Counted from the stretch's first letter, positions 140 through 50,036 are shown. The stretch: 52,044 bases of DNA from a virus (IMGVR_UViG_3300025282_000046:1-52044), one strand, 5' to 3'. Notes: generated by a model not told the origin, from the letters alone. Numbers and translations are program-made.

Positions 140-1036
140 ATGACTCAAACACAGGATATAGCGGTAGGAAAAACAGGAGCCCAAAAGTTTAGTGGTTTAG
201 GTTTTTCAGGACAAAAGATGGTGCATCCACCGGGACAACTACTAGGATTACTAGTAGGAATGCCGGGGACAGGTAAATCATCTTTCTTACAATCAAACCC
301 CGATGCATTCATCATTAACACCGATGGAACATCTACAACAAACCCTAACCCACAAGCCTGTATATGGCCCGGAGTTACAGCATTTGGTGAACCAATGGAT
401 GTGGGTGGTGCTTCAATGGTTCTTACATGGGATGAGGTTCTCAAAAAGAAAGAACAACTAATTAAAATGGTAGGTTCTAATACACAGAGACCACAAACTA
501 TTGTACTTGATAGTCTTGGACCTTCAATTCAACTCATGAAAGACTATGTTACCAAGAAAGCAGGACGAGAGAACTGGAAAGATCTCGATGGTCGAAGAGC
601 ATGGGATGATGTCTATGATGGACTACTCCGATTTTCATTAGACCTCCGCAGACACGGCTATGGATTCTTCTATGTATGCCATCTCGTAAATGCAAAGATT
701 CCACTAGGTGATGACCGATATACTATCAGACCCGAACTCACAATAACCGATTCGTTCTATAAAAGACTGTTCCCGATGTTCGAACTCGTTGCAGCATTTG
801 AATCCGATTGGGTATCCGAATCAAAACAAATACAAATGAAAGGCATCGGAGGAAAACCCGGACCAAAGAAAACCGAAACCGTAAAAACACAAAAATATTA
901 TATGACAATTAACGATGAGGCCCTTGCGGGAATCACTAAATGTCGTGTACAATTACCCGACCGTATTGAACTTCCACAGGAGTCTGCGTGGACTTCATTC
1001 GAAGAACAATACTTAACCGCTCAAAAGAAGGATTAG
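140..1036 (+). CDS. Sak4-like / AAA_24 P-loop ATPase (phage ssDNA-annealing recombinase)
   Basis: Walker A GMPGTGKSS, Walker B-like TIVLDSL, YVCH motif; AGGAG RBS; followed by an SSB-like gene as is usual for sak4. Confidence 0.75.
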   Translation: MTQTQDIAVGKTGAQKFSGLGFSGQKMVHPPGQLLGLLVGMPGTGKSSFLQSNPDAFIINTDGTSTTNPNPQACIWPGVTAFGEPMDVGGASMVLTWDEVLKKKEQLIKMVGSNTQRPQTIVLDSLGPSIQLMKDYVTKKAGRENWKDLDGRRAWDDVYDGLLRFSLDLRRHGYGFFYVCHLVNAKIPLGDDRYTIRPELTITDSFYKRLFPMFELVAAFESDWVSESKQIQMKGIGGKPGPKKTETVKTQKYYMTINDEALAGITKCRVQLPDRIELPQESAWTSFEEQYLTAQKKD

Positions 1037-1041
1037 CATCT

Positions 1042-1566
1042 ATGAGTATCAGTAACGAAACGAAGGCAGTCTTCGCACAAATTCAAAACGATTTCGAAGC
1101 CGCAAGCGCAGATCAAGGAATGGGATCATTAGGAGAATGGCCACCTAAAGGTGAACATGCTTGTTACGTTCTCGGAGTCAACGTACAAAATGGAACCTTC
1201 CGACAAACAGACGACAAGCAAGAATTTCCAGCGGTAACCGTACAATTCCATTATCAACTCTGTGAAGACCCAGACCGCACAGAACCATTGATCTGGAATG
1301 GTGCACCAATGACAATTCCTAACGATGCTTCGGTACTAACACACGAAGGTTCTCAAATCCGTGCCAAAATCGAACTAGGTAGATTAAAAGGACACCTCAA
1401 AACCATACTTGGTTATGAGCCAACAGACCTAGGTTCAGCATTTGAAGAAGTAGAAACCAAACTAAATGGTGACTCTACTATTGCATGTATGATTCGATGT
1501 AACTATACTGAACGAGGCACAACCACTTACAAAAGTGAGTACCTCCAAACACTACTTGGTGGTTAA
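1042..1566 (+). CDS. Putative ssDNA-binding protein (DUF669-like OB fold)
   Basis: Start moved to ATG 1042 (MSISNET); 'WPPKGEHACYVLGV' resembles the P-x-G-x-Y-x-x-x-I start of phage SSBs; follows the Sak4-like ATPase. Confidence 0.55.
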   Translation: MSISNETKAVFAQIQNDFEAASADQGMGSLGEWPPKGEHACYVLGVNVQNGTFRQTDDKQEFPAVTVQFHYQLCEDPDRTEPLIWNGAPMTIPNDASVLTHEGSQIRAKIELGRLKGHLKTILGYEPTDLGSAFEEVETKLNGDSTIACMIRCNYTERGTTTYKSEYLQTLLGG

Positions 1567-1587
1567 TAAATAGAACCCCCACTCTTA

Positions 1588-2316
1588 GGGCTCCCCGATT
1601 CTTCCCGATGACGGGAGCCCCATTTAGTAGGTACCTTCTGTAAGGTCATGTGCCTTTAGGCTGGGCTGAACTAATATAGACATTGTGCAGCCTACTCCAT
1701 CACTCCTTTGTTGCTCTTAGTTCATTCAATAGGTGTGACTCGACTAGTTATCGTCACCTATTGCAGAGGGTATCTACTAATTGAGGGGCATTTAATAGAT
1801 ACCTTATACGGCACCTATTAAGACGGTAGGTTAGGCGTTGCTTCCTAACTGAGAATCTTATTAACCCACAAAGGGGTGCCACAATCTAAGGGGAGTAGTA
1901 ATTTGAGCTGGAACTAGTGAAGCCTAATAAAACAGCCAGCATAGGCACGTTGCTACTCCCCACCAATCCACGCTTTAATAGCGGATCAAGAGCCTAGCGA
2001 GGTTGAATCTCCAATGAGGGGAAGGCTCTCCGCACCAATCTAATACCTGTGTCCCGTACCTAGGGACTGCAAAATGAACGCTCTGATGAATGACACCCCG
2101 CTGGATACAAGGGTGATTGGTAATCCAGGTTTAATTACCGGGAGGGTCAATGCCTAATAACAATTCACTTCTTGTTCATCGCAGGTATAATATAATAGGG
2201 GTGGGCAGCTGGAGCATGCAGTTAAATAACTATAAACAGCTACCCCACCCCATAATTTATGTGTAACCACGGCTAGACGGGTTCACGGAGATAATCTTGG
2301 CATCTCCGGCACATAT
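1588..2316 (+). ncRNA. Array of tandem structured RNA modules (or one large ncRNA) of unknown class
   Basis: No ORF >=60 aa. Seven consecutive stem-closed modules: 1588-1620, 1624-1780, 1810-1884, 1890-1965, 1981-2037, 2043-2188, 2198-2251, plus 2258-2315. Closing-stem mismatches are G-U on the + strand. Confidence 0.7.
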
Positions 2317-2351
2317 AGCCCTCACTAGTAGAGATATTAGTGGGGGTTTTT
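2317..2351 (+). terminator. Intrinsic terminator closing the structured array
   Basis: 14-bp stem AGCCCTCACTAGTA / TATTAGTGGGGGTT with G-U pairs, GAGA (GNRA) tetraloop, T run. Confidence 0.7.
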
Positions 2352-2392: not shown

Positions 2393-3808
2393 ATGTCAAG
2401 ATATAGAGCCACTAAAGCAATGATCGAATCTCTTAAAGGATTAGATACATCTATCGCGGCACAGAGAGCCCGTGTCCATGCCGCTATGACATTTGAACCT
2501 AAATTACTCTACACGGCAGGGACAAACTTAAAGGGAATACACGGTAAAGGAGGGGCTTTATTTGCGAGGGAATCTTTTGGATTACCCTTAGGTAAATTTG
2601 AGGGTATCCACGGTAGAACCATAGCGGTACCCACAAGAACAGGACCTCCCATAACTACTTTACCAGCAGAAGAAATTAGACAATGGCTCTTAAAATATAG
2701 AAATACTATGCAATCAAACCCTGACAAGATTGCGTTGTTACCTCCTATTGGAATGGGTAATGCAGGTATAAAATCCGATGTAATGTTAGGAATGATGGAC
2801 GATGCGGGGCTAATGCAAATGGGAAAACAAATAGTACCCACAGCCGAGATGGTAGGCAAAGGATTCCCGGAAACCGCAGCACGTTTACGTCTAATTGAAG
2901 GAATGAAAAAAGCACAAGGAGGCACTATGCCTAAAGTTACTACATCGTTTGTGGGGCCTATGAGCTTCCCTATCATGGGAGCAAGAACCGTCAAATCAAG
3001 AACTACCTTTAATGCCATTACAGCAGGTGAACGAACCATGACAACACGCAAACTTGGACAAGGATGGGAGGATCTTAAAGTAGGAGATGTATTTCCTATT
3101 ACAGGTAAGGAGGGTCAAACCCAACTAATAAAAATTACACACGAACCTGTAATACATACTGTTACAGGTAAAGAATCACAGGCGTTTCTAAATAGATGGT
3201 CTCAACTTGAAGGTCATGGACCAGAACAATTCAATAGGATTTTTAAACCAGGACAAAAAATAACAATGGTTAAATATAAATTTGGAGGTAAATCAGTAAT
3301 ACATTCTGGGGGTGCAGATGGAGCAGATACTGTGTTCCAAAATGCTGCGTTAAAAAAAGGACATGAGGTACAAGCCCACTCTTTTGCAGGACATGCAAGA
3401 GGAAACAGTGCAAGAGTAGAACATTCTCTTGCAGAATTAAAAGAAGCAGATGTCTACCTTCACAAGGCCAATCAAACTCTTAAAAGAAGATTCCCGGCTA
3501 GTAATGAATATGTAAATAATCTTCTAAGAAGAAACCTATATCAAGTTAAAGATTCAGATCAAGTGATTGCAGCAGCACCTATTAAATATGGTCAGGTACA
3601 AGGAGGTACTGCATGGGCTACTCAAATGGGAATTGATATGGGTAAACCAGTATTCGTCTTTGATTTAAAAACAAACCAATGGATGAAGTGGGTAGGTAAT
3701 GCTTATGTTCCATCCTCAGCACCTTCTTTATCCGCAAGTTTCGCAGGTATAGGCTCTCGTAAAATAACAAAGGTGGGGGAAAAAGCTATAGAAGATCTAT
3801 TCACTTAA
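2393..3808 (+). CDS. Multidomain protein: basic N-terminus + ASCH/PUA-like domain + SLOG (YspA/DprA-like) domain
   Basis: ASCH-like 'FNAITAGERTMTTRK...LKVGDVF'; SLOG motifs 'IHSGGADGAD', 'LLRRN..QV.DSD', 'GGTAWA...GKPVFVFD', 'FAGIGSR'; GGAGGA RBS. Confidence 0.7.
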   Translation: MSRYRATKAMIESLKGLDTSIAAQRARVHAAMTFEPKLLYTAGTNLKGIHGKGGALFARESFGLPLGKFEGIHGRTIAVPTRTGPPITTLPAEEIRQWLLKYRNTMQSNPDKIALLPPIGMGNAGIKSDVMLGMMDDAGLMQMGKQIVPTAEMVGKGFPETAARLRLIEGMKKAQGGTMPKVTTSFVGPMSFPIMGARTVKSRTTFNAITAGERTMTTRKLGQGWEDLKVGDVFPITGKEGQTQLIKITHEPVIHTVTGKESQAFLNRWSQLEGHGPEQFNRIFKPGQKITMVKYKFGGKSVIHSGGADGADTVFQNAALKKGHEVQAHSFAGHARGNSARVEHSLAELKEADVYLHKANQTLKRRFPASNEYVNNLLRRNLYQVKDSDQVIAAAPIKYGQVQGGTAWATQMGIDMGKPVFVFDLKTNQWMKWVGNAYVPSSAPSLSASFAGIGSRKITKVGEKAIEDLFT

Positions 3809-39206: not shown

Positions 39207-41546
39207 TTATCGTGCCATTGGTGGTGCGTATCCTCCACCCGGTGTAGGAGGTCTAAAATTAATAAGGCCATCTACAAAGTCGTTAAGTGATTCTTTGGCA
39301 GGAGCACCAATTGCTCCTGCTATTGTTCCTAAATCTTCAGGGACCCCTCTCCACTGATCCGCTAGACCGCCCCAACTTCCACCTCGAGCAGAACCGGGAA
39401 TATCAGGAATCATATCTGAGAAGATAGAAGGATGAGTAGCACCTTCTAATTGTTCAGGTAGTCCAAATGTAGGCACCCCCCAACCCATTGGAGTTCGGAA
39501 CCGATTCGCTAACTTAACGGCTCCACCTATAGTTGGGTTGTACCAGTTTGCACCAAGTCCTGTATTAAATTCTAGACCTCCACCTTGAGCGGGTCTTGCG
39601 ACATCTCCGAGTGATACAAGAAAGTCTCCTATTCCAGCAATAGTTCCCGGCACAGCCGATGCTGCGTCATATGAGGTAGCACCGGGAGAACCGATTGCTT
39701 CATCAAGTGCTGCGTCCCTAGGATCTATAAGGTGTTCTTGTACGGTATCAATGGTTTGGTTTATCATCTCAGGAGCCATCGCTAGCGTAAAACCTCTACC
39801 CATAGTAGGTCTCACGCCACCTTTTGTAAGTGCTTGTAGGTTTGCTTTGGGATTTAAAAATTGTCCTTGACCTAAACCAAACGCACTTGGATTTACCATT
39901 CCTCGTCTAGCACCGGGGGCGGCGGCGGCGCGGGGGAAGCCTGGTCTTGTACCGGATGGTTTCTTTGGTTCTGGTTCCATGCGAATTTGTTCACCTACAG
40001 ATTTCCTTTCTAGTTCCAGACCTATCTCCCTGAGTTCCGCTTGGGTAAAGGGTTGTCCGGTTCTAGGGTTAAGAGTGTTAGCCATATGATGTGCAGCGGC
40101 CGCAGTCCAACCTTGTTTCTTGGCTATCTTGTTAAGTTCATTCTCCATTGCTTTATCTATTGTCTTGGGGTTAACCTGATGCCATTGTTGGGTTCTAGCC
40201 GCTCTACGTTCAGCAATCTCTGCTTCAGTTAAGGTTTTTCCTCCCCGTTTAGCTTGCTCCACCGACTCGTTTACATATGCATCAATTTGGTTTTTAATCC
40301 AAGCATCTTTCGGGTTCATTGATTTATCATAAATAGGTTTGGGTGCAACTTCGGGACCCATATCAAATAATTCACCTTGACCCCCAGACGACCTGAAACG
40401 TGGTTCACCTTGCACTCTAATAGGTTCTCCCCCCGCAGGTTCAACTTTTGGTGCTTTAGATTCTACAGGTTTAACTTTTTCAATAGGTGCTTCCGCTTCA
40501 ACTGCCGCTTTTGCTTCTGCTGTCGCTGCTGCTTCCGGTGTCATTTCTATAATAGTTGTAGGGAAGAGTCCCTTTTGTCTAATATTGGATATTGCCGCAT
40601 CACTATTTACTGCTCGAATTTGACCCTTAGTTTTTTTACCTTCACTATCAATTGCTTCATAATCATAAGATTTCAATCCGTCTTCGGCTGTCGCTTTTGC
40701 GGCTTTTGCTTCTGCTCTTTTACTTGCTCCGGGAATTACCTTACCTACCCCCTTAACTACTGACCCCCCTATTTTTGTTGCTTTTTTCCAATTATCTTTA
40801 ATGGGACCCTCACTTTGTGAAGCCTTCCAGTTTCTTGCTAATTCTATAGCTTCTCCACGGGTTATGGGTTTTCCTTCTGGATTCGTAAATTCCCATGTAG
40901 GTCTTCTTTTCTTTTTGCCAGTGTCCAGTAAAGGTACTGCTTCTGGGATGTATCTTCTTGGATTGACGCGGGATCGGGTAGTTACGTCTGTGGAGGGTTT
41001 TGACATTTGAAAAGGAGCATCGGGCATTCCCGCTACTTCTTTTAGTTGTGCGTTTAGGGTGTTTCTATTATAAGTTCTTACTCCTTCTGTTGCGAGTGCA
41101 GCAGAACCACCTAGGAAACCCAGCATTTTTAATGTGTTCCAGTAATCGGTACCCGTCATTGGTTGTTCGAGTCTTGACCAACGTGGAATATTAGAGGTGA
41201 CTACATCTTCTATTGGTTTTCCTGCGCCTATAGCAATTCTACTACTTGTGTAATCACCCAAAGAAGACCGCCCACCTATACCTTGGAACCCTAAGGGGAG
41301 TCGTCGTGTCATGTTTCGGAGTTGAGACATTTGGTAGGTGTTCTTTGCCGAAGCAACCATCTCGTCCATGCGAGCATCATTACTTAGTTGATTAAGTGAT
41401 CTTTGTTGGTTTGAAACCTGCGGGCGAGGCAAAATTGTGGTAGGATTGTTTTGTCGAGCATCGTCAACGAAACCGCTAATCGTACTCGTATCCCTTTCAC
41501 TTCCATATATATCCTGAAGTTCATTCTTCTTTTTTCTACGTGCCAT
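39207..41546 (-). CDS. Large mosaic protein containing a PilC/GspF N-terminal-like domain
   Basis: Start revised to MARRKKK (41546); internal 'YDYEAIDSEGKKTKGQIRAVNSDAAISNIRQKGLFPTTIIE'. Confidence 0.6.
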   Translation of the reverse strand: MARRKKKNELQDIYGSERDTSTISGFVDDARQNNPTTILPRPQVSNQQRSLNQLSNDARMDEMVASAKNTYQMSQLRNMTRRLPLGFQGIGGRSSLGDYTSSRIAIGAGKPIEDVVTSNIPRWSRLEQPMTGTDYWNTLKMLGFLGGSAALATEGVRTYNRNTLNAQLKEVAGMPDAPFQMSKPSTDVTTRSRVNPRRYIPEAVPLLDTGKKKRRPTWEFTNPEGKPITRGEAIELARNWKASQSEGPIKDNWKKATKIGGSVVKGVGKVIPGASKRAEAKAAKATAEDGLKSYDYEAIDSEGKKTKGQIRAVNSDAAISNIRQKGLFPTTIIEMTPEAAATAEAKAAVEAEAPIEKVKPVESKAPKVEPAGGEPIRVQGEPRFRSSGGQGELFDMGPEVAPKPIYDKSMNPKDAWIKNQIDAYVNESVEQAKRGGKTLTEAEIAERRAARTQQWHQVNPKTIDKAMENELNKIAKKQGWTAAAAHHMANTLNPRTGQPFTQAELREIGLELERKSVGEQIRMEPEPKKPSGTRPGFPRAAAAPGARRGMVNPSAFGLGQGQFLNPKANLQALTKGGVRPTMGRGFTLAMAPEMINQTIDTVQEHLIDPRDAALDEAIGSPGATSYDAASAVPGTIAGIGDFLVSLGDVARPAQGGGLEFNTGLGANWYNPTIGGAVKLANRFRTPMGWGVPTFGLPEQLEGATHPSIFSDMIPDIPGSARGGSWGGLADQWRGVPEDLGTIAGAIGAPAKESLNDFVDGLINFRPPTPGGGYAPPMAR

Positions 41547-41563
41547 AATATAAGGATACAACA

Positions 41564-42970
41564 ATGACGGTTGGAACACAAGACAGACCACTCACTTCTG
41601 CAGAACCTATGAAGGTTGCAGATGCACTTATAAGGGGAATCTTTCGGACCCCAAGTGGGAAGGGTGGGTTGTGGGCATTTAGGGGAGACTTCTATCAATG
41701 GTATGGGGATAGGTGGGAGAGACGAGAACAAGAGTGGGTCGAAGATTTATGTTGGAAAGAGTTGGAGGATGCCTACTACGAAGAAATAATGGCAGACGGA
41801 ACCGTAAGAGTCCGTAGAATTGCACCCAATAGACAGAAGATAGATAACATTGTTAGGGGGTTAGCAGCGAGAGTGAGAATCCCCCACTCTAATATACCTG
41901 TATGGTTGGATGATCCGGGTCGGGATGCGGGTAGTGTTATAGCGTTTCAGGATCAGTTGGTGGATGCGAAGACGGGTGAGGTTGTGGAGAGGACTGAAGA
42001 TTGGTTTGATCCGGTGATATTGCCTGTGAACTATAATCCGGGTGCCGAGTGTCCTAGGTGGATGAGGTGCTTGGAAGAGTGGGGGAATAATGATCCGGAG
42101 TGGAGCATGTTGCTGATGAGATGGATGGGGTACTGTCTCATGAACCACAGGAGACACGCTAGGTGGTTATTGATGTACGGGAAGGTTAGGAGCGGGAAGG
42201 GGACGATAGGCAAGGTGTTGCAGAAGTTGTTGGGGCAAGATGGGTTTATGAATACGAGTCTTGATGATCTGAGTGGAGACTTCGGGTTGGATGGGTTAGA
42301 GCATTCTAGGGTGCTATGTGTTAGTGAGGTGAGTGAGTTAGACGGGAGGGAGGGAGAGAGAGCCACTAGGGTATTGAAGAATATTATTGGTCAAGATCCG
42401 ATTACCGTGAATGTGAAATATAAGAGGCAGATGAGGAATGTTGTGGTTAATGCTGCACCTATTGTTCAAGCGAATGAGATTCCCCAGTTGCCTAATAAGG
42501 GTAGAGGGTTGTCTTCCAAGATGCTGGTGCTTCCTTTTGATGTAAGTTTTGAGGGGAAAGAAGATCCTTATTTGATTGACAAGTTATCGGGTGAGTTGGA
42601 GGGTATTGCATCGTGGGCGGTGGAGGGTGCTATTGATTTAGAGAGTGGGTTGGGGGGTAGATTCCCGTTACCTAGTAGGGCGAGTGATACGATACAGATG
42701 TACCATCTTCAGAATAACCCGTTTGATTATTTCTTAGAGGAGAGGTTCTTCAGGAGTGAGGGCGGGTTCGTTGCTACGGACTTGTTGTGGATGCAATGGA
42801 AAGATTGGTTGAAATCGAATTCGATAAAGAACCTTCATGTAGCAAGGAATCAGTTGTCGATAAAGATAGAGATGCAAAGTAGTTGGTCGGTTCATAGACA
42901 TCGACCACATGGGGGCAAGAGAGGCTTGAAGGGTTTGAGCCTTAGAAAAAGTTTTGATGACTTGTGCTAG
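41564..42970 (+). CDS. D5/P4-type SF3 helicase (D5_N + ATPase + winged helix), no primase domain recognised
   Basis: 'VIAFQDQLVD', 'YNPGAECPRW', Walker A YGKVRSGKGT, 'VSEV', 'IIGQDPITVNVKYK'. Confidence 0.85.
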   Translation: MTVGTQDRPLTSAEPMKVADALIRGIFRTPSGKGGLWAFRGDFYQWYGDRWERREQEWVEDLCWKELEDAYYEEIMADGTVRVRRIAPNRQKIDNIVRGLAARVRIPHSNIPVWLDDPGRDAGSVIAFQDQLVDAKTGEVVERTEDWFDPVILPVNYNPGAECPRWMRCLEEWGNNDPEWSMLLMRWMGYCLMNHRRHARWLLMYGKVRSGKGTIGKVLQKLLGQDGFMNTSLDDLSGDFGLDGLEHSRVLCVSEVSELDGREGERATRVLKNIIGQDPITVNVKYKRQMRNVVVNAAPIVQANEIPQLPNKGRGLSSKMLVLPFDVSFEGKEDPYLIDKLSGELEGIASWAVEGAIDLESGLGGRFPLPSRASDTIQMYHLQNNPFDYFLEERFFRSEGGFVATDLLWMQWKDWLKSNSIKNLHVARNQLSIKIEMQSSWSVHRHRPHGGKRGLKGLSLRKSFDDLC

Positions 42971-42988
42971 ACACAGAAAGGAACAATA

Positions 42989-43267
42989 ATGGAAGAATAC
43001 ATTATGAGTAAAGAGGCTATTGAAGGTGCATGTATATGTATATTGAATAGGATTATTATGAACAAAGATGTTGGATCACCCAAGAATGCTGACCCAGAAG
43101 ATCTATGGGCTCATTTAAAGATAAAATACAAAGATGGGGATGAGATTATCGATGAGGATAGTCTTATTTGGGACGTGTGGAGGGTAGGGAACGGGTATGT
43201 GCTTTATTGTTCGGAAACAAAAGAGACTATTGAGGTGCCGAGACCCGAGAGATTGGGTGGAGAGTGA
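42989..43267 (+). CDS. Hypothetical protein
   Basis: AAAGGA RBS; acidic 92-aa ORF. Confidence 0.6.
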   Translation: MEEYIMSKEAIEGACICILNRIIMNKDVGSPKNADPEDLWAHLKIKYKDGDEIIDEDSLIWDVWRVGNGYVLYCSETKETIEVPRPERLGGE

Positions 43268-43501
43268 ACCGGATGGCGTACCAGTTGCGTACCGGATGGA
43301 AAGTGCGTTTTTAGAGTGGAAATAAGGTTTGATCCGGGTGTACCGCATGTACCGGGTGTGTCTGTACTCTTTTACTAATCTATATATGGTCACGCAATGG
43401 TTACAAAATACCTGGTACACCCGGTACAAACCGAAAAATCGAGCTTGTAGGGGCCTAGAGTGGGGCTTTTTGAACCAGCTCATGCGGTACATACCCGGAT
43501 C
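43266..43501. repeat. Convergent GTACC(G/A)G iterons around an AT-rich core: putative replication origin
   Basis: Direct copies at 43266-43360; inverted copies at 43411-43428 and 43481-43501; GATCCGGGTGTACCGCATG / CATGCGGTACATACCCGGATC inverted pair. Confidence 0.6.
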
Positions 43502-43851
43502 GGAAGTGGATCGCCCCTATTTTTAGCCTAAAAAGGGACATGAAAAAAATGAGATTTTGAAGATTCGAAGGGTTGTGTTAATTTGGGGGGTTTACGGTTG
43601 GGTGAGGTGAGGAAAATTGTATATAGGGTGAGGAATTCCTAGACAGGATCGGTGTTTCGTAATGACCACAGGCAAACACCTAGGGGGCTTCGGGGGTACC
43701 CAAGTTTACGTCGGGAAGGGGACACGGAAGGAACGCTACGCTGTGGACTCACGTATTTCGTCACTGAAGTGACGAGGAACGGGAACTCGGGAACCACAAA
43801 CCACAACTAACTACACACGGAGTCAGACTATTACCTTGTTTTAAGAAGGAC

Positions 43852-43916
43852 ATTTCGCATCACCATACTTGCTCCTTCATCGGGGCAAGCCCTCTTCGGA
43901 GCGGTGATGCAACAGT
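43852..43916. repeat. Structured element, copy 1 (ATTTC-GCATCACC-ATAC...C-GGTGATGC-AACAGT)
   Basis: Flanks conserved in three copies; 8-bp stem. Confidence 0.8.
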
Positions 43917-44072
43917 CGGGTTCGGGTATATTTTTTGATTTTACAGTCCAAATCTGCTAGTAAGACCACAATCTACACGCTCTTGATTGAGAGTAGATGC
44001 GAACATTCACTAATTCGTTAGAGTGGCAAAGATTTAGACTTTTATTTACGCATGACATATGCATGCACCAAA

Positions 44073-44121
44073 CTGACCTAAACACGTCAGTAGTTGAGTA
44101 ACCAGTCTCATCAAACTGTTT
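44073..44121 (+). ncRNA. Pseudoknot motif copy A (with inserted hairpin)
   Basis: CTGAC-CTAAACAC-GTCAG...AAAC-TGTTT. Confidence 0.5.
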
Positions 44122-44123
44122 TT

Positions 44124-44199
44124 AAGGGGTAGATACAACAAGGTGAAAAACAACACATTTTAAGTGATTACAGCACTCTTCGTATCTACCCTTTTTTTT
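44124..44199 (+). terminator. Long stem followed by T8 (terminator/attenuator-like)
   Basis: AGGGGTAGATAC / GTATCTACCCTT, then TTTTTT. Confidence 0.45.
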
Positions 44200-44205
44200 A
44201 TAATG

Positions 44206-44270
44206 ATTTCGCACAACCATACAGGTCTCGACTGCGGGTAAGACCTTGTCTTCGACGGTTGTGCAACAGT
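44206..44270. repeat. Structured element, copy 2 (ATTTC-GCACAACC-ATAC...C-GGTTGTGC-AACAGT)
   Basis: Compensatory changes relative to copy 1. Confidence 0.8.
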
Positions 44271-44327
44271 TGTTATTGGGTGAATTTTTTGTTTTTTTAT
44301 CATAATCTAATCTAAAGGAGTATTATT

Positions 44328-45475: not shown

Positions 45476-45724
45476 CTTTGGGGAAGGTAAAACAAATAAC
45501 TAGAATTTTATATTCTTAACAAATAAAGGCTGACGAGCCTGTGGGTGGCTGAATAATCACTTGGAAAGGTGATAAAGCACACATTAGTCTGTAGTAGACT
45601 GTCCAACGACCAAGTGGTAAAGGACATACTCCTAACCGAGTTTGATGTGATATTCTGGCGATAATACAAATAGTATTTCCCTCTGGAATTGCAGGTAAAC
45701 TTTATCCTGCCCCACACCATATTT

Positions 45725-48744: not shown

Positions 48745-48975
48745 ATGACAAAGGAACAAAAATATCAATTGTGTAAATTGATAAAAAACTTACAAGGTAA
48801 CCTTATAAAGTTACATGCAAACGGAACAACCGGAACTATTATGGATGAGTCTTTAGATATACTCAACCAATTAGTAGGTTGGCTCGTAATCTCAGGCATC
48901 GAGAAAGAATACAATGAAAAACTCGATGAACAAGCAGCAATATCAGAACACGAAAATTGGAGACAGAACTCATGA
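48745..48975 (+). CDS. Hypothetical protein
   Basis: AAGGA RBS. Confidence 0.55.
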   Translation: MTKEQKYQLCKLIKNLQGNLIKLHANGTTGTIMDESLDILNQLVGWLVISGIEKEYNEKLDEQAAISEHENWRQNS

Positions 48976-49790
48976 AACGTCACAACTGTAATGAATACGT
49001 AGAGTATGAAGACCTCGCAACCATACCTCTACCACCAGCAAGAGATAGATTCGTGCCTATGGCACATCAAGACCTATTCGATAGAACAGTAAAGAACCTA
49101 TCAACACTAAACTACGAACCCGTAAAACCTAGGTTCTTACTTGACCACACAAAACAAAAGTTTATAGCCACATTTGGTATTAAACAAAGTGCAAAGGCAT
49201 TTAGTAGTGGATCTGTAGATCAATTTGCAAACAATGACTATCAATTTGAAGTAGGTCTAATAAATAGTAATGATGGCAGCATGGCAGCCAAACTATTCAC
49301 AGGTACCCGTGTATTCGTGTGTGCCAACGGTCAATGGTCGGGTGAAGTAGTTCTCTCCCGTAAACACACTCGTAACGCAGGTTACGACATCAACCGCGGA
49401 CTCCGAGACTTCGTATTCGAACTCGAAGACACTCGCAAAGAAACCTTTGCAAACTTTGATAGACTTAAAGAATATGACTTTGGTAGTAAATCAGAAGTTC
49501 ATGATTTTATAGTTGAAACTTGCAATCGAAATATCCTTCCTTGGCAACACGCACCTAAAGTACTTGAACACTGGAATAATCCAGAACATGACGAATTTAA
49601 AGACCGCAATGGATATTGTTTATTCAACGCATATACATCACATTGGAGAGATGCTAATCAATTCTCTCTATCAGACAAAACAAAAAGATTAAGGAGTTAC
49701 ATCGATGAGTTCAAACAACCACAATACGTTGGATCAGCTGAACAAAGATTTGAAGAATCACCAAGATCAAATGGAATATCACCGTGGTGA
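48972..49790 (+). CDS. DUF932-family protein
   Basis: 'GLINSNDGSMA...GTRVFVCANG...RKHT' and 'LFNAYT' signature; start at MKRH (ATGA overlap). Confidence 0.8.
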   Translation: MKRHNCNEYVEYEDLATIPLPPARDRFVPMAHQDLFDRTVKNLSTLNYEPVKPRFLLDHTKQKFIATFGIKQSAKAFSSGSVDQFANNDYQFEVGLINSNDGSMAAKLFTGTRVFVCANGQWSGEVVLSRKHTRNAGYDINRGLRDFVFELEDTRKETFANFDRLKEYDFGSKSEVHDFIVETCNRNILPWQHAPKVLEHWNNPEHDEFKDRNGYCLFNAYTSHWRDANQFSLSDKTKRLRSYIDEFKQPQYVGSAEQRFEESPRSNGISPW

Positions 49791-49953: not shown

Positions 49954-50036
49954 GAACCAGTTTCCTCCTTTGACTCTGGTTTAGGAAGACTTCCTTACTT
50001 GTGGGAGTGAAGTCTATAATCTAAAGTCCCACTAAC

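Follow-up and report, generated by a model that had tools for sequence, protein, structure and literature searches.

A candidate array of structured small RNAs joined by a conserved 8-nt spacer in an uncultured marine phage

The tRNA clusters of phages are polycistronic, one-orientation strings of different small RNAs, each of which pairs its own ends and is separated from the next by a short single-stranded spacer; the RNAs are presumably set free by host RNases, the repertoire differs between related phages, and the tRNA region of phage T4 includes the co-transcribed stable species 1 and 2 RNAs. BIME/REP and BOX mosaics combine hairpin units with short conserved linkers, lie at operon ends and are transcribed within mRNA, CRISPR and type III ToxI antitoxin arrays give rise to long precursors that are cut at a short fixed sequence between structured segments, and GOLLD and ROOL are long, highly structured untranslated regions of phages. 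Here we describe a locus in IMGVR_UViG_3300025282_000046 (hereafter "the window": the whole stretch of 52,044 nucleotides (nt), which is an entire IMG/VR virus record of a 52-kb uncultured marine phage with an estimated completeness of 95%), where an 826-nt gap between two genes (positions 1567-2392), devoid of + strand open reading frames (ORFs) of at least 40 amino acids (aa), holds about 8 structured units; in this and other such arrays nearly every hairpin-closed unit is followed by the 8-mer ACAATCTA or a close variant of it.

By analogy, the closest counterpart of the array in its working would be a phage tRNA cluster with stable RNAs, and in its layout the BIME/BOX mosaics. Unlike the tRNA clusters, the array has no tRNA unit, uses a fixed 8-mer as spacer instead of arbitrary sequence and does not keep NCCA ends, and its units are common to phages with almost no shared proteins. 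Unlike the BIME/REP and BOX elements, it occupies one locus per genome and not hundreds, its units all have one orientation, and they fold in complex ways, their loops being conserved and their stems covarying. CRISPR and ToxI arrays differ in that here the recurring element measures only 8-9 nt and the segments are unrelated folded RNAs of 50-150 nt, without direct repeats of at least 20 nt or identical tandem units (the spacer is the sole recurring element in 1400-2500, where direct repeats reach at most 15 nt, in 2 copies); moreover, no cas or toxin family was found by Pfam and PHROGs among the flanking and early-region proteins scanned, which are only part of the window ORFs. The array resembles GOLLD and ROOL in length and degree of structure, but their Rfam models find no match in the window, and it is a variable string of independent units, not one fold. 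In contrast to integron attC cassettes, there are no inverse core sites at both ends of the hairpins, and an integrase was sought among the scanned proteins only.

Literature searches returned no published description of such arrays; among the motif strings used as queries, the 8-mer was found only in chance matches to microRNAs and four longer motifs in no paper. In the accessible part of a recent preprint (bioRxiv 10.64898/2026.10.21.760802) the repeat arrays mentioned are CRISPR, TIGR and VIPR only, and in the accessible part of a survey of 8,495 candidate structured RNAs from IMG/VR (PMC10690425) the words "tandem" and "array" occur 0 times each, while its supplementary tables may list single units. 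The reading that we prefer, with belief and doubt in rough balance, is that of a polycistronic array, exchanged horizontally, of structured small RNAs that are independent of one another, are encoded on the + strand and are probably freed by host cuts at the spacers.

Folds of the units and the spacer between them

A sequence-only reading of the window had singled out three consecutive hairpin-closed segments (units 1, 2 and 3 in Table 1), whose stems and following letters are indeed present as it described; they are 3 of the about 8 units in the gap. Folded alone as + strand RNA, units 1, 2 and 3 form end-to-end stems with z-scores of -2.43, -3.92 and -1.97 relative to shuffled sequences (on the - strand: -1.88, -1.57 and -0.25), and the entire gap has a folding z-score of -5.69. 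The single-unit values are modest, and the evidence beyond chance appears to lie in conservation, i.e. in the recurrence of the units in other phages with compensatory stem changes. In each unit it is the unit's own 5' and 3' ends that pair, and across the arrays 2660 of the 2954 pairs (90%) of the minimum-free-energy structures stay within a unit and cross no spacer. That units 1-3 are genuine + strand structures, each paired end to end and independent of the others, is supported.

Altogether, at least 8 unrelated unit families were distinguished in about 20 distinct arrays, several of them with compensatory stem changes and some with conserved loops and inserts of variable length. In family A (18 variants, including unit 2) the 12-pair closing stem is 94.9% paired and shows compensatory changes in 7 of its 12 pairs, which 0 of 500 shuffles reach; the interiors diverge widely around a common GAAG...GATAA-like core. 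Family D (3 variants: unit 1 of the window, L043 and L062) has 18 predicted pairs, 4 of them with compensatory changes, and combines a conserved helix TTAAGA/TCTTA with a variable hairpin flanked by the invariant CGGTA and GAGAA of an internal loop. In family E (unit 3; 5 sequences aligned) a second stem, AGAGCC/GGCTCT, encloses GGTTGAAYC and a small inner hairpin that varies in both sequence and length. Family B, found outside the window (8 variants of 123-162 nt with flank), has 32 pairs, 4 of them with compensatory changes, as well as invariant unpaired segments and a helix with a cUUCGg tetraloop in some members and insert hairpins of ~30-40 nt in others. G-U cells exceed A-C cells in the stems, with ratios of 18:3 (family A), 5:0 and 31:1, of which the last two are biased by the derivation of the structures on the + strand; this excess favours the + strand.

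Scans of the window and of 17 related loci against Rfam 15 yielded no match for the array. At E<=10 the region 1400-2500 of the window yielded 3 weak hits, all on the - strand and none tRNA-like, and at E<=1 five array loci yielded 0 hits. The idea that family A resembles SRP RNA or Y RNA was rejected for want of Rfam support, and so was the idea of unit 2 as a guide against other phages, for which blastn (E<=10) gave only one 23-nt chance match.

Could the units be new classes of self-cleaving ribozymes, with the spacer as, or next to, the cleavage site? Families B, G and D are complex folds with invariant unpaired nucleotides, and known small ribozymes cluster in environmental phage-like DNA. 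However, the same spacer accompanies family A, which is essentially one long hairpin, the units contain no conserved partner with which the spacer could pair, and no ribozyme model of Rfam was matched at its gathering score (including the covariance models of hammerhead, twister, twister-sister, pistol, hatchet and HDV-like classes), nor at E<=10 in 1400-2500 or at E<=1 in the five array loci, the only trace being a weak drz-agam-2-2 row (13.5 bits, where the gathering score is 38) that lies antisense to the array. We consider this explanation highly improbable.

The element shared between units is the spacer. Nearly every hairpin-closed unit runs into ACAATCTA or into one of the near variants ACAATTTA, ACAATATA, ATAATCTA, ACAATAATA and ACCAATCCA, and the next unit begins 1-3 nt further on, mostly with G. 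The first letter of the spacer is always A, usually followed by C, and the consensus across arrays is ACAAUCUA; the underlying table was gathered by a regular expression that admits the variants and is therefore no unbiased logo. The most frequent 8-mer in a set of 19 non-redundant arrays, which total 10,434 nt and come from relatives as well as unrelated phages, is ACAATCTA: the + strand has 31 copies and the - strand 0. The expected number is ~0.16, and in mononucleotide shuffles the count averages 0.27 and never exceeds 3. Outside the gap the window contains 3 copies on the + strand and 1 on the - strand over 51 kb, and outside the arrays the 8-mer stays at chance level in the window and in records G001-G004. 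The mean unpaired probability of spacer bases is 0.78, compared with 0.41 for the rest of the arrays. The spacer was found only 3' of units, and it also follows units that are unlike acceptor helices (families B, C, G and K). A pairing partner of the spacer, as in a pseudoknot or a guide, was considered and rejected: of 15 arrays, only those of the window (GATTGGT) and L003 (TAGATTG) contain one, and the other 13 lack the spacer's complement.

Exchange of units among phages

With the two proteins encoded upstream of the gap as queries, 21 and 15 loci were collected from viral contigs. The close relatives have gaps of ~400-830 nt in the same place and the more distant L015, L016 and L017 have gaps of 79-91 nt. 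The first 71 nt of the gap are the only part common to all close relatives (blastn, 94-99% identity); beyond them, the gap is a mosaic in which pieces of the window recur in other orders.

Pattern searches extended the collection. The spacer combined with the start of family A matched 10 stretches in viral contigs, 10 of 10 with arrays, of which 7 were new loci in a different gene context, and 45 stretches in metagenomes, 5 of which (L050, L062, L080, L085 and L088) contain homologous arrays; 39 of these 45 lack homology and were discarded as chance matches, and L054 matches over the pattern only. A family E pattern gave 16 stretches in viral contigs, of which 7 were chance matches, 3 were known loci and 6 were both new and true, with 4 distinct sequences among these 6. 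A family D pattern gave 24, of which 4 were known and 20 (16 distinct) were set aside as probable chance matches because the flanking unit features were not seen there. A two-spacer pattern was too strict and had 0 matches.

Several of these arrays belong to phages that are unrelated to the window by protein content. Positions 1892-2260 are 92.9% identical to L123, in which the window ORFs of at least 70 aa have 0 tblastn hits, and positions 1873-2030 are 98.7% identical to L062, which has 1 such hit and contains units 1, 2 and 3 in the same order as the window. The same units thus occur at 93-99% nucleotide identity in phages that share at most one recognizable protein with it. In a second lineage the array follows a DUF932-like gene and ends with the unit F hairpin, after which comes a consensus TTGACA/TATAAT promoter; G001, a whole 58-kb record of this lineage, holds families A, B, C, D and K and has 0 tblastn hits (E<=1e-5) to window ORFs of at least 70 aa. 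By contrast, G002 is a true relative and matches most of these ORFs. All arrays have the orientation of their flanking genes, and there is one array per record, with no dispersed copies found.

Parts of the stretch are also contained in 24 public runs from 20 studies. Contigs in four of the runs match one unit and then run into different units, with breaks at 1634, 1810, 1885-1889, 2033, 2044, 2187 and 2251. In a metatranscriptome library, unit 1 is present at 100% identity on a contig of 214 nt, preceded by CAATCTAA and followed by a different unit. Position 1810 is the exact start or break point of this RNA-library contig and of DNA contigs. The parts of the stretch that lack cover in the RNA runs X23 and X24 are uninformative. 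Between phages, units come and go and their order changes, and the breakpoints fall at the spacers.

Such movement would also be expected of a DNA-level mosaic of palindromic, selfish or recombinogenic elements similar to REP/BIME, BOX or cassette arrays, with ACAATCTA as a target or recombination site and RNA without a function of its own. The array sits in a recombination module, after a Sak4-like and possibly a DUF669-like protein, the strand bias of the spacer would also suit single-strand-specific DNA enzymes, and whole-array folding energy favours neither strand. We nonetheless regard this explanation as unlikely, on several grounds. Only one array is present per genome. The unpaired segments are the most conserved ones and the stems covary, which is the pattern of folded RNA and the opposite of that of simple palindromic repeats, and there are a UUCG tetraloop and helices with variable-length inserts. 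The spacer complement is missing from 13 of 15 arrays, hence there is no inverted core site, and a scan of 19 window proteins (part of the window ORFs) revealed neither a transposase nor an integrase. In addition, a single family C pattern searched in the genomes of 185,579 species gave no true hit, its 1 match being a chance one in G+C-rich coding DNA.

On another view, the units are cis-acting structures of untranslated regions (3'-exonuclease barriers, terminators or antiterminators) that tune the flanking genes and yield no separate RNAs. The position of the array at an operon end agrees with this, in the window directly upstream of the next gene and with a terminator-like hairpin at 2319-2351, as do the placement of unit F ahead of a promoter in the other lineage and the resemblance of the leader of unit 3, CGCTTTAATA, to what we take to be the consensus of the boxA antitermination element. 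However, the flanking genes change between lineages while the units stay, and at least 8 distinct complex folds with conserved loops exceed the needs of a stabilizer or terminator; we consider the cis-acting explanation quite unlikely.

tRNA-like ends and proposed release at the spacer

According to the sequence-only reading, units 1-3 mimic tRNA acceptors, i.e. a helix followed by NCCA, which would be released by RNase P, 3' trimming and the CCA-adding enzyme and could serve as decoys for tRNA-targeting defences or as aminoacyl carriers. It had noted the lack of a cloverleaf and expected a negative or pseudo result from ARAGORN, which indeed gave 0 tRNA or tmRNA genes in the window. Several features agree with mimicry: most units have a closing stem of 5-13 bp and a G as their first letter, right behind the spacer, the A of the spacer and the C that usually follows are placed like a discriminator base plus C74, the stem of family A, at 12-13 bp, has the length of an acceptor/T-arm minihelix, and some spacers contain ACCA. 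A route that does without an encoded CCA is also conceivable, with RNase Z cutting after the first A and CCA being added afterwards.

The ends themselves do not follow this scheme. In the 18 variants of family A, the stem is followed directly by ACCA in 4, by ACCA after an extra T in 1, by ACAA in 9, by GACAA in 2, by GATAA in 1 and by none of these in 1. In the family of unit 3 ACCA is present in the window only (1 of 5 tails; the others are ACAATCTAAC, ACAAGAAATT, GACAATCTAA and GACAATCTAT), and in that of unit 1 the tail is ACAA in 3 of 3 variants and ACCA in 0 of 3. Conservation of the ACCA ends in homologues was the test set beforehand for the mimic reading, which therefore fails it. The ACCA forms seem to differ from the general spacer by a single base, as AC(C)AATCTA; all 8 nt of this spacer are kept, far beyond the needs of tRNA processing and also behind families B, C, G and K. 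Rfam gave no tRNA-like hit, and ARAGORN reported 0 tRNAs in 20 related loci and 0 in 11 further loci; the units are therefore not decayed tRNAs either, a possibility that the sequence-only reading had named among its refuting outcomes. The label "tRNA-like acceptor ends" is an interpretation and not an observation, and we hold acceptor mimicry to be very unlikely. Release of the units by host RNA processing, the other part of that proposal, is plausible.

For the array of independent RNAs that we prefer, the following sequence of events can be envisaged. The array would be transcribed together with the upstream operon, and a host endonuclease would cut the exposed, A/U-rich, single-stranded spacer; the host is the likelier source of the nuclease because phages without common proteins use the same spacer. 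RNase E-type cleavage would be a first guess, and RNase P might additionally trim units at their 5' G. Each cut would free a stable end-paired RNA, and the 8-9 nt of the spacer could double as micro-homology for the recombination and swapping of units. As a guess, each freed RNA might have its own target among host or defence factors and bind it as a decoy or regulator, and the many complex folds, the fast-changing repertoire and the spread across lineages might then fit accessory cargo of an arms race. Put together, this would amount to a combinatorial "RNA cassette array", a traded library of at least 8 folded-RNA families in which ACAAUCUA is both the site of a host RNase and the micro-homology for swaps and in which the RNAs are decoys or inhibitors of host defence or RNA-handling proteins; we advance this fuller version only tentatively and consider it doubtful.

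A number of points weigh against the release of separate RNAs from the + strand. The outer stems of family E are uninformative because they are invariant, and families D and E comprise few variants (3 and 5 sequences). Whole-array folding energy is lower on the + strand in only 9 of the 19 arrays and does not separate the strands. The 214-nt contig from the RNA library is weak evidence of transcription and, being a single one, could be explained by DNA carry-over; the public runs consist of assembled contigs only, which show neither RNA ends nor strand, and because assembly graphs branch at the spacers the contig breaks demonstrate reshuffling, not processing. Conservation of the spacer could reflect the youth of the arrays and their exchange in blocks, and not a role as cleavage site. 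Furthermore, RNase E prefers to cleave at RN|WUU, which ACAAUCUA fits only loosely.

If the units are indeed made and released, they would represent a modular means by which phages carry and exchange folded RNAs, with a logic like that of tRNA clusters or gene-cassette arrays, and would add at least 8 new structured RNA families, several of which (~110-160 nt, with invariant unpaired segments) are complex enough for ribozymes or specific protein binders; the spacer would then point to a sequence-specific processing or recombination signal. The 93-99% identity of units between phages with almost no common proteins argues for strong selection or very recent spread, a pattern that is expected of counter-defence cargo.

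Parts of the array and its surroundings

Table 1. Parts of the array, 5' to 3', with the adjoining genes (positions in the window)
Feature	Positions	Strand	Description
Sak4-like annealing protein	140-1036		upstream of the gap
192-aa protein	988-1566		upstream of the gap; near DUF669 clusters in Atlas (lead only)
Conserved stretch after upstream gene	1567-1623	+	hairpin GGGCTCCCCG (1588-1597) / CGGGAGCCCC (1612-1621)
Unit S	1624-1783	+	closing stem TTAGTAGGTACC (1624-1635) / GGTATCTACTAA (1769-1780), inverted repeat I1
Unit 1 (family D)	1810-1880	+	7-bp stem GGCACCT (1810-1816) / GGGTGCC (1874-1880), then ACAATCTAA
Spacer ACAATCTA plus A	1881-1889	+	contigs break at 1885-1889
Unit 2 (family A)	1890-1961	+	13-bp stem GGGGAGTAGTAAT (1890-1902) / GTTGCTACTCCCC (1949-1961), divergent interior, then ACCAATCCA
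Variant spacer ACCAATCCA plus CGCTTTAATA	1962-1980	+	conserved leader of unit 3
Unit 3 (family E)	1981-2033	+	stem GCGGA (1981-1985) / TCCGC (2029-2033), then ACCAATCTAA; GGTTGAATC inside
Spacer ACCAATCTA plus A	2034-2043	+	window-specific variant; near-identical array of L123 has GACAATCTAA here
Unit G	2044-2187	+	~144 nt; stem TACCTG (2044-2049) / CAGGTA (2182-2187), then A/T-rich joint TAATATAATA
Unit F	2198-2251	+	long G+C-rich hairpin GGGGTGGGCAGCTGG ... CAGCTACCCCACCCC, then ATAATTTA
Unit K	2260-2313	+	invariant CCACGGCTAGACGGG (2267-2281) plus hairpin CGGAGATAATCTTGGCATCTCCG (2286-2308)
Terminator-like hairpin	2319-2351	+	CCCTCACTA...TAGTGGGGG, then TTTTT; 41 nt ahead of next start codon (2393)
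471-aa protein	2393-3808	+	downstream of the gap; apparent three-part fusion

The conserved stretch at the start of the gap probably belongs to the upstream gene, as a terminator or regulator, rather than to the array; where the gap measures only 79-91 nt, in the distant relatives, a hairpin is retained at the position of 1588-1621, with different stem letters. Unit S retains both arms in all relatives, the interior being replaced and different in each, and one DNA contig departs from the window at 1634. The segment GGTATCTACTAATTG (1769-1803) can pair either with TTAGTAGGTACC upstream or with CATTTAATAGATACC downstream (inverted repeat I3); CATTTAATAGATACC resembles the truncated start of a second S unit, and L036 has two complete S units in tandem. 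The 19 nt that lead into unit 3 precede family E also in L062, L005, L122, L123 and L131, and L021 has ACAATCTA plus TTTCTTGATA instead. A similar element, ACAATCTA followed by CACGCTCTTGATTGAGAG, is located in a divergent promoter region at 43968-43990 (+) and resembles the unit 3 leader ACCAATCCACGCTTTAATA (1962-1980); it also looks slightly like boxA, again judged by what we take to be the consensus.

Unit G is colinear with L123 and has variants in L120 and L131; contigs break at both of its ends, and in another sample the sequence continues from 2187 into ACACAATCTAA. Homologues of unit F are present in L009, L062, L120, L122, L123 and L131. In the last four the hairpin is followed by an A/T-rich run and by TTGACA...TATAAT, and unit F may act as a terminator that closes the array before the consensus promoter of the other lineage. 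This promoter is of the near-consensus form TTGACA-17-TATAAT and is followed by a gene for a small conserved protein with AGKGD and GRITKEE motifs. Unit K is found in L005, L007, L021, L041 and L043 at differing array positions. The terminator-like hairpin has an 85% homologue in L021; its loop is longer than the pattern scan permits, and the scan missed it. Regarding the loops, the A-rich motif GCCTAATAA is present in units 2 and G (1922-1930 and 2152-2160), TATAAACA is the third commonest 8-mer across arrays (14 copies), and cores of the AAGCAGGATAA type are shared by several members of family A and a separate unit. These recurring A-rich motifs may be shared binding sites.

The 471-aa protein downstream appears to combine an N-terminal phrog_2072 domain, a predicted ASCH-like fold at residues ~173-300 and a weakly DprA/SLOG-like C-terminus. 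The ASCH-domain neighbour noticed earlier holds at the level of the fold (Atlas model of this region against ASCH clusters: TM score 0.59-0.65), but not in Pfam, which did not find ASCH at E<=0.1, and no relative was found in the PDB by sequence. Among the fetched loci only L007 and L028 encode a homologue, which covers the first 171 residues, and a search for related loci with this protein as query found none; judging from this distribution, the 471-aa protein is not linked to the arrays. The other flanking and early-region proteins identified by Pfam and PHROGs are Sak4-like, DUF932 and primase. In a set of 50,697 phage records neither the gap (blastn) nor the large terminase (tblastn) had a match, and all matches of the primase-helicase were below 30% identity, the best ones being in phages of Aeromonas, Vibrio, Shewanella and Streptomyces.

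Elsewhere in the window, the sole Rfam hit is a full-length manA RNA motif (RF01745; 73.8 bits, gathering score 55.2) at 45528-45720 (+), within the early + strand operon. The GC skew changes sign in 41000-44300, rising to +0.45 at 42-43 kb, where the - strand late genes meet the + strand early genes, and an untranslated stretch of ~800 nt at 43500-44300 contains several hairpins and T-runs. A lone hairpin, AGACTTC...GAAGTCT, at 49987-50024 (+) is followed by ATAATCTAA and by a T-rich terminator-like stretch. It lies downstream of a DUF932 gene (48957-49790), as the full array of the second lineage follows a DUF932-like gene, and may represent a one-unit version of the array.

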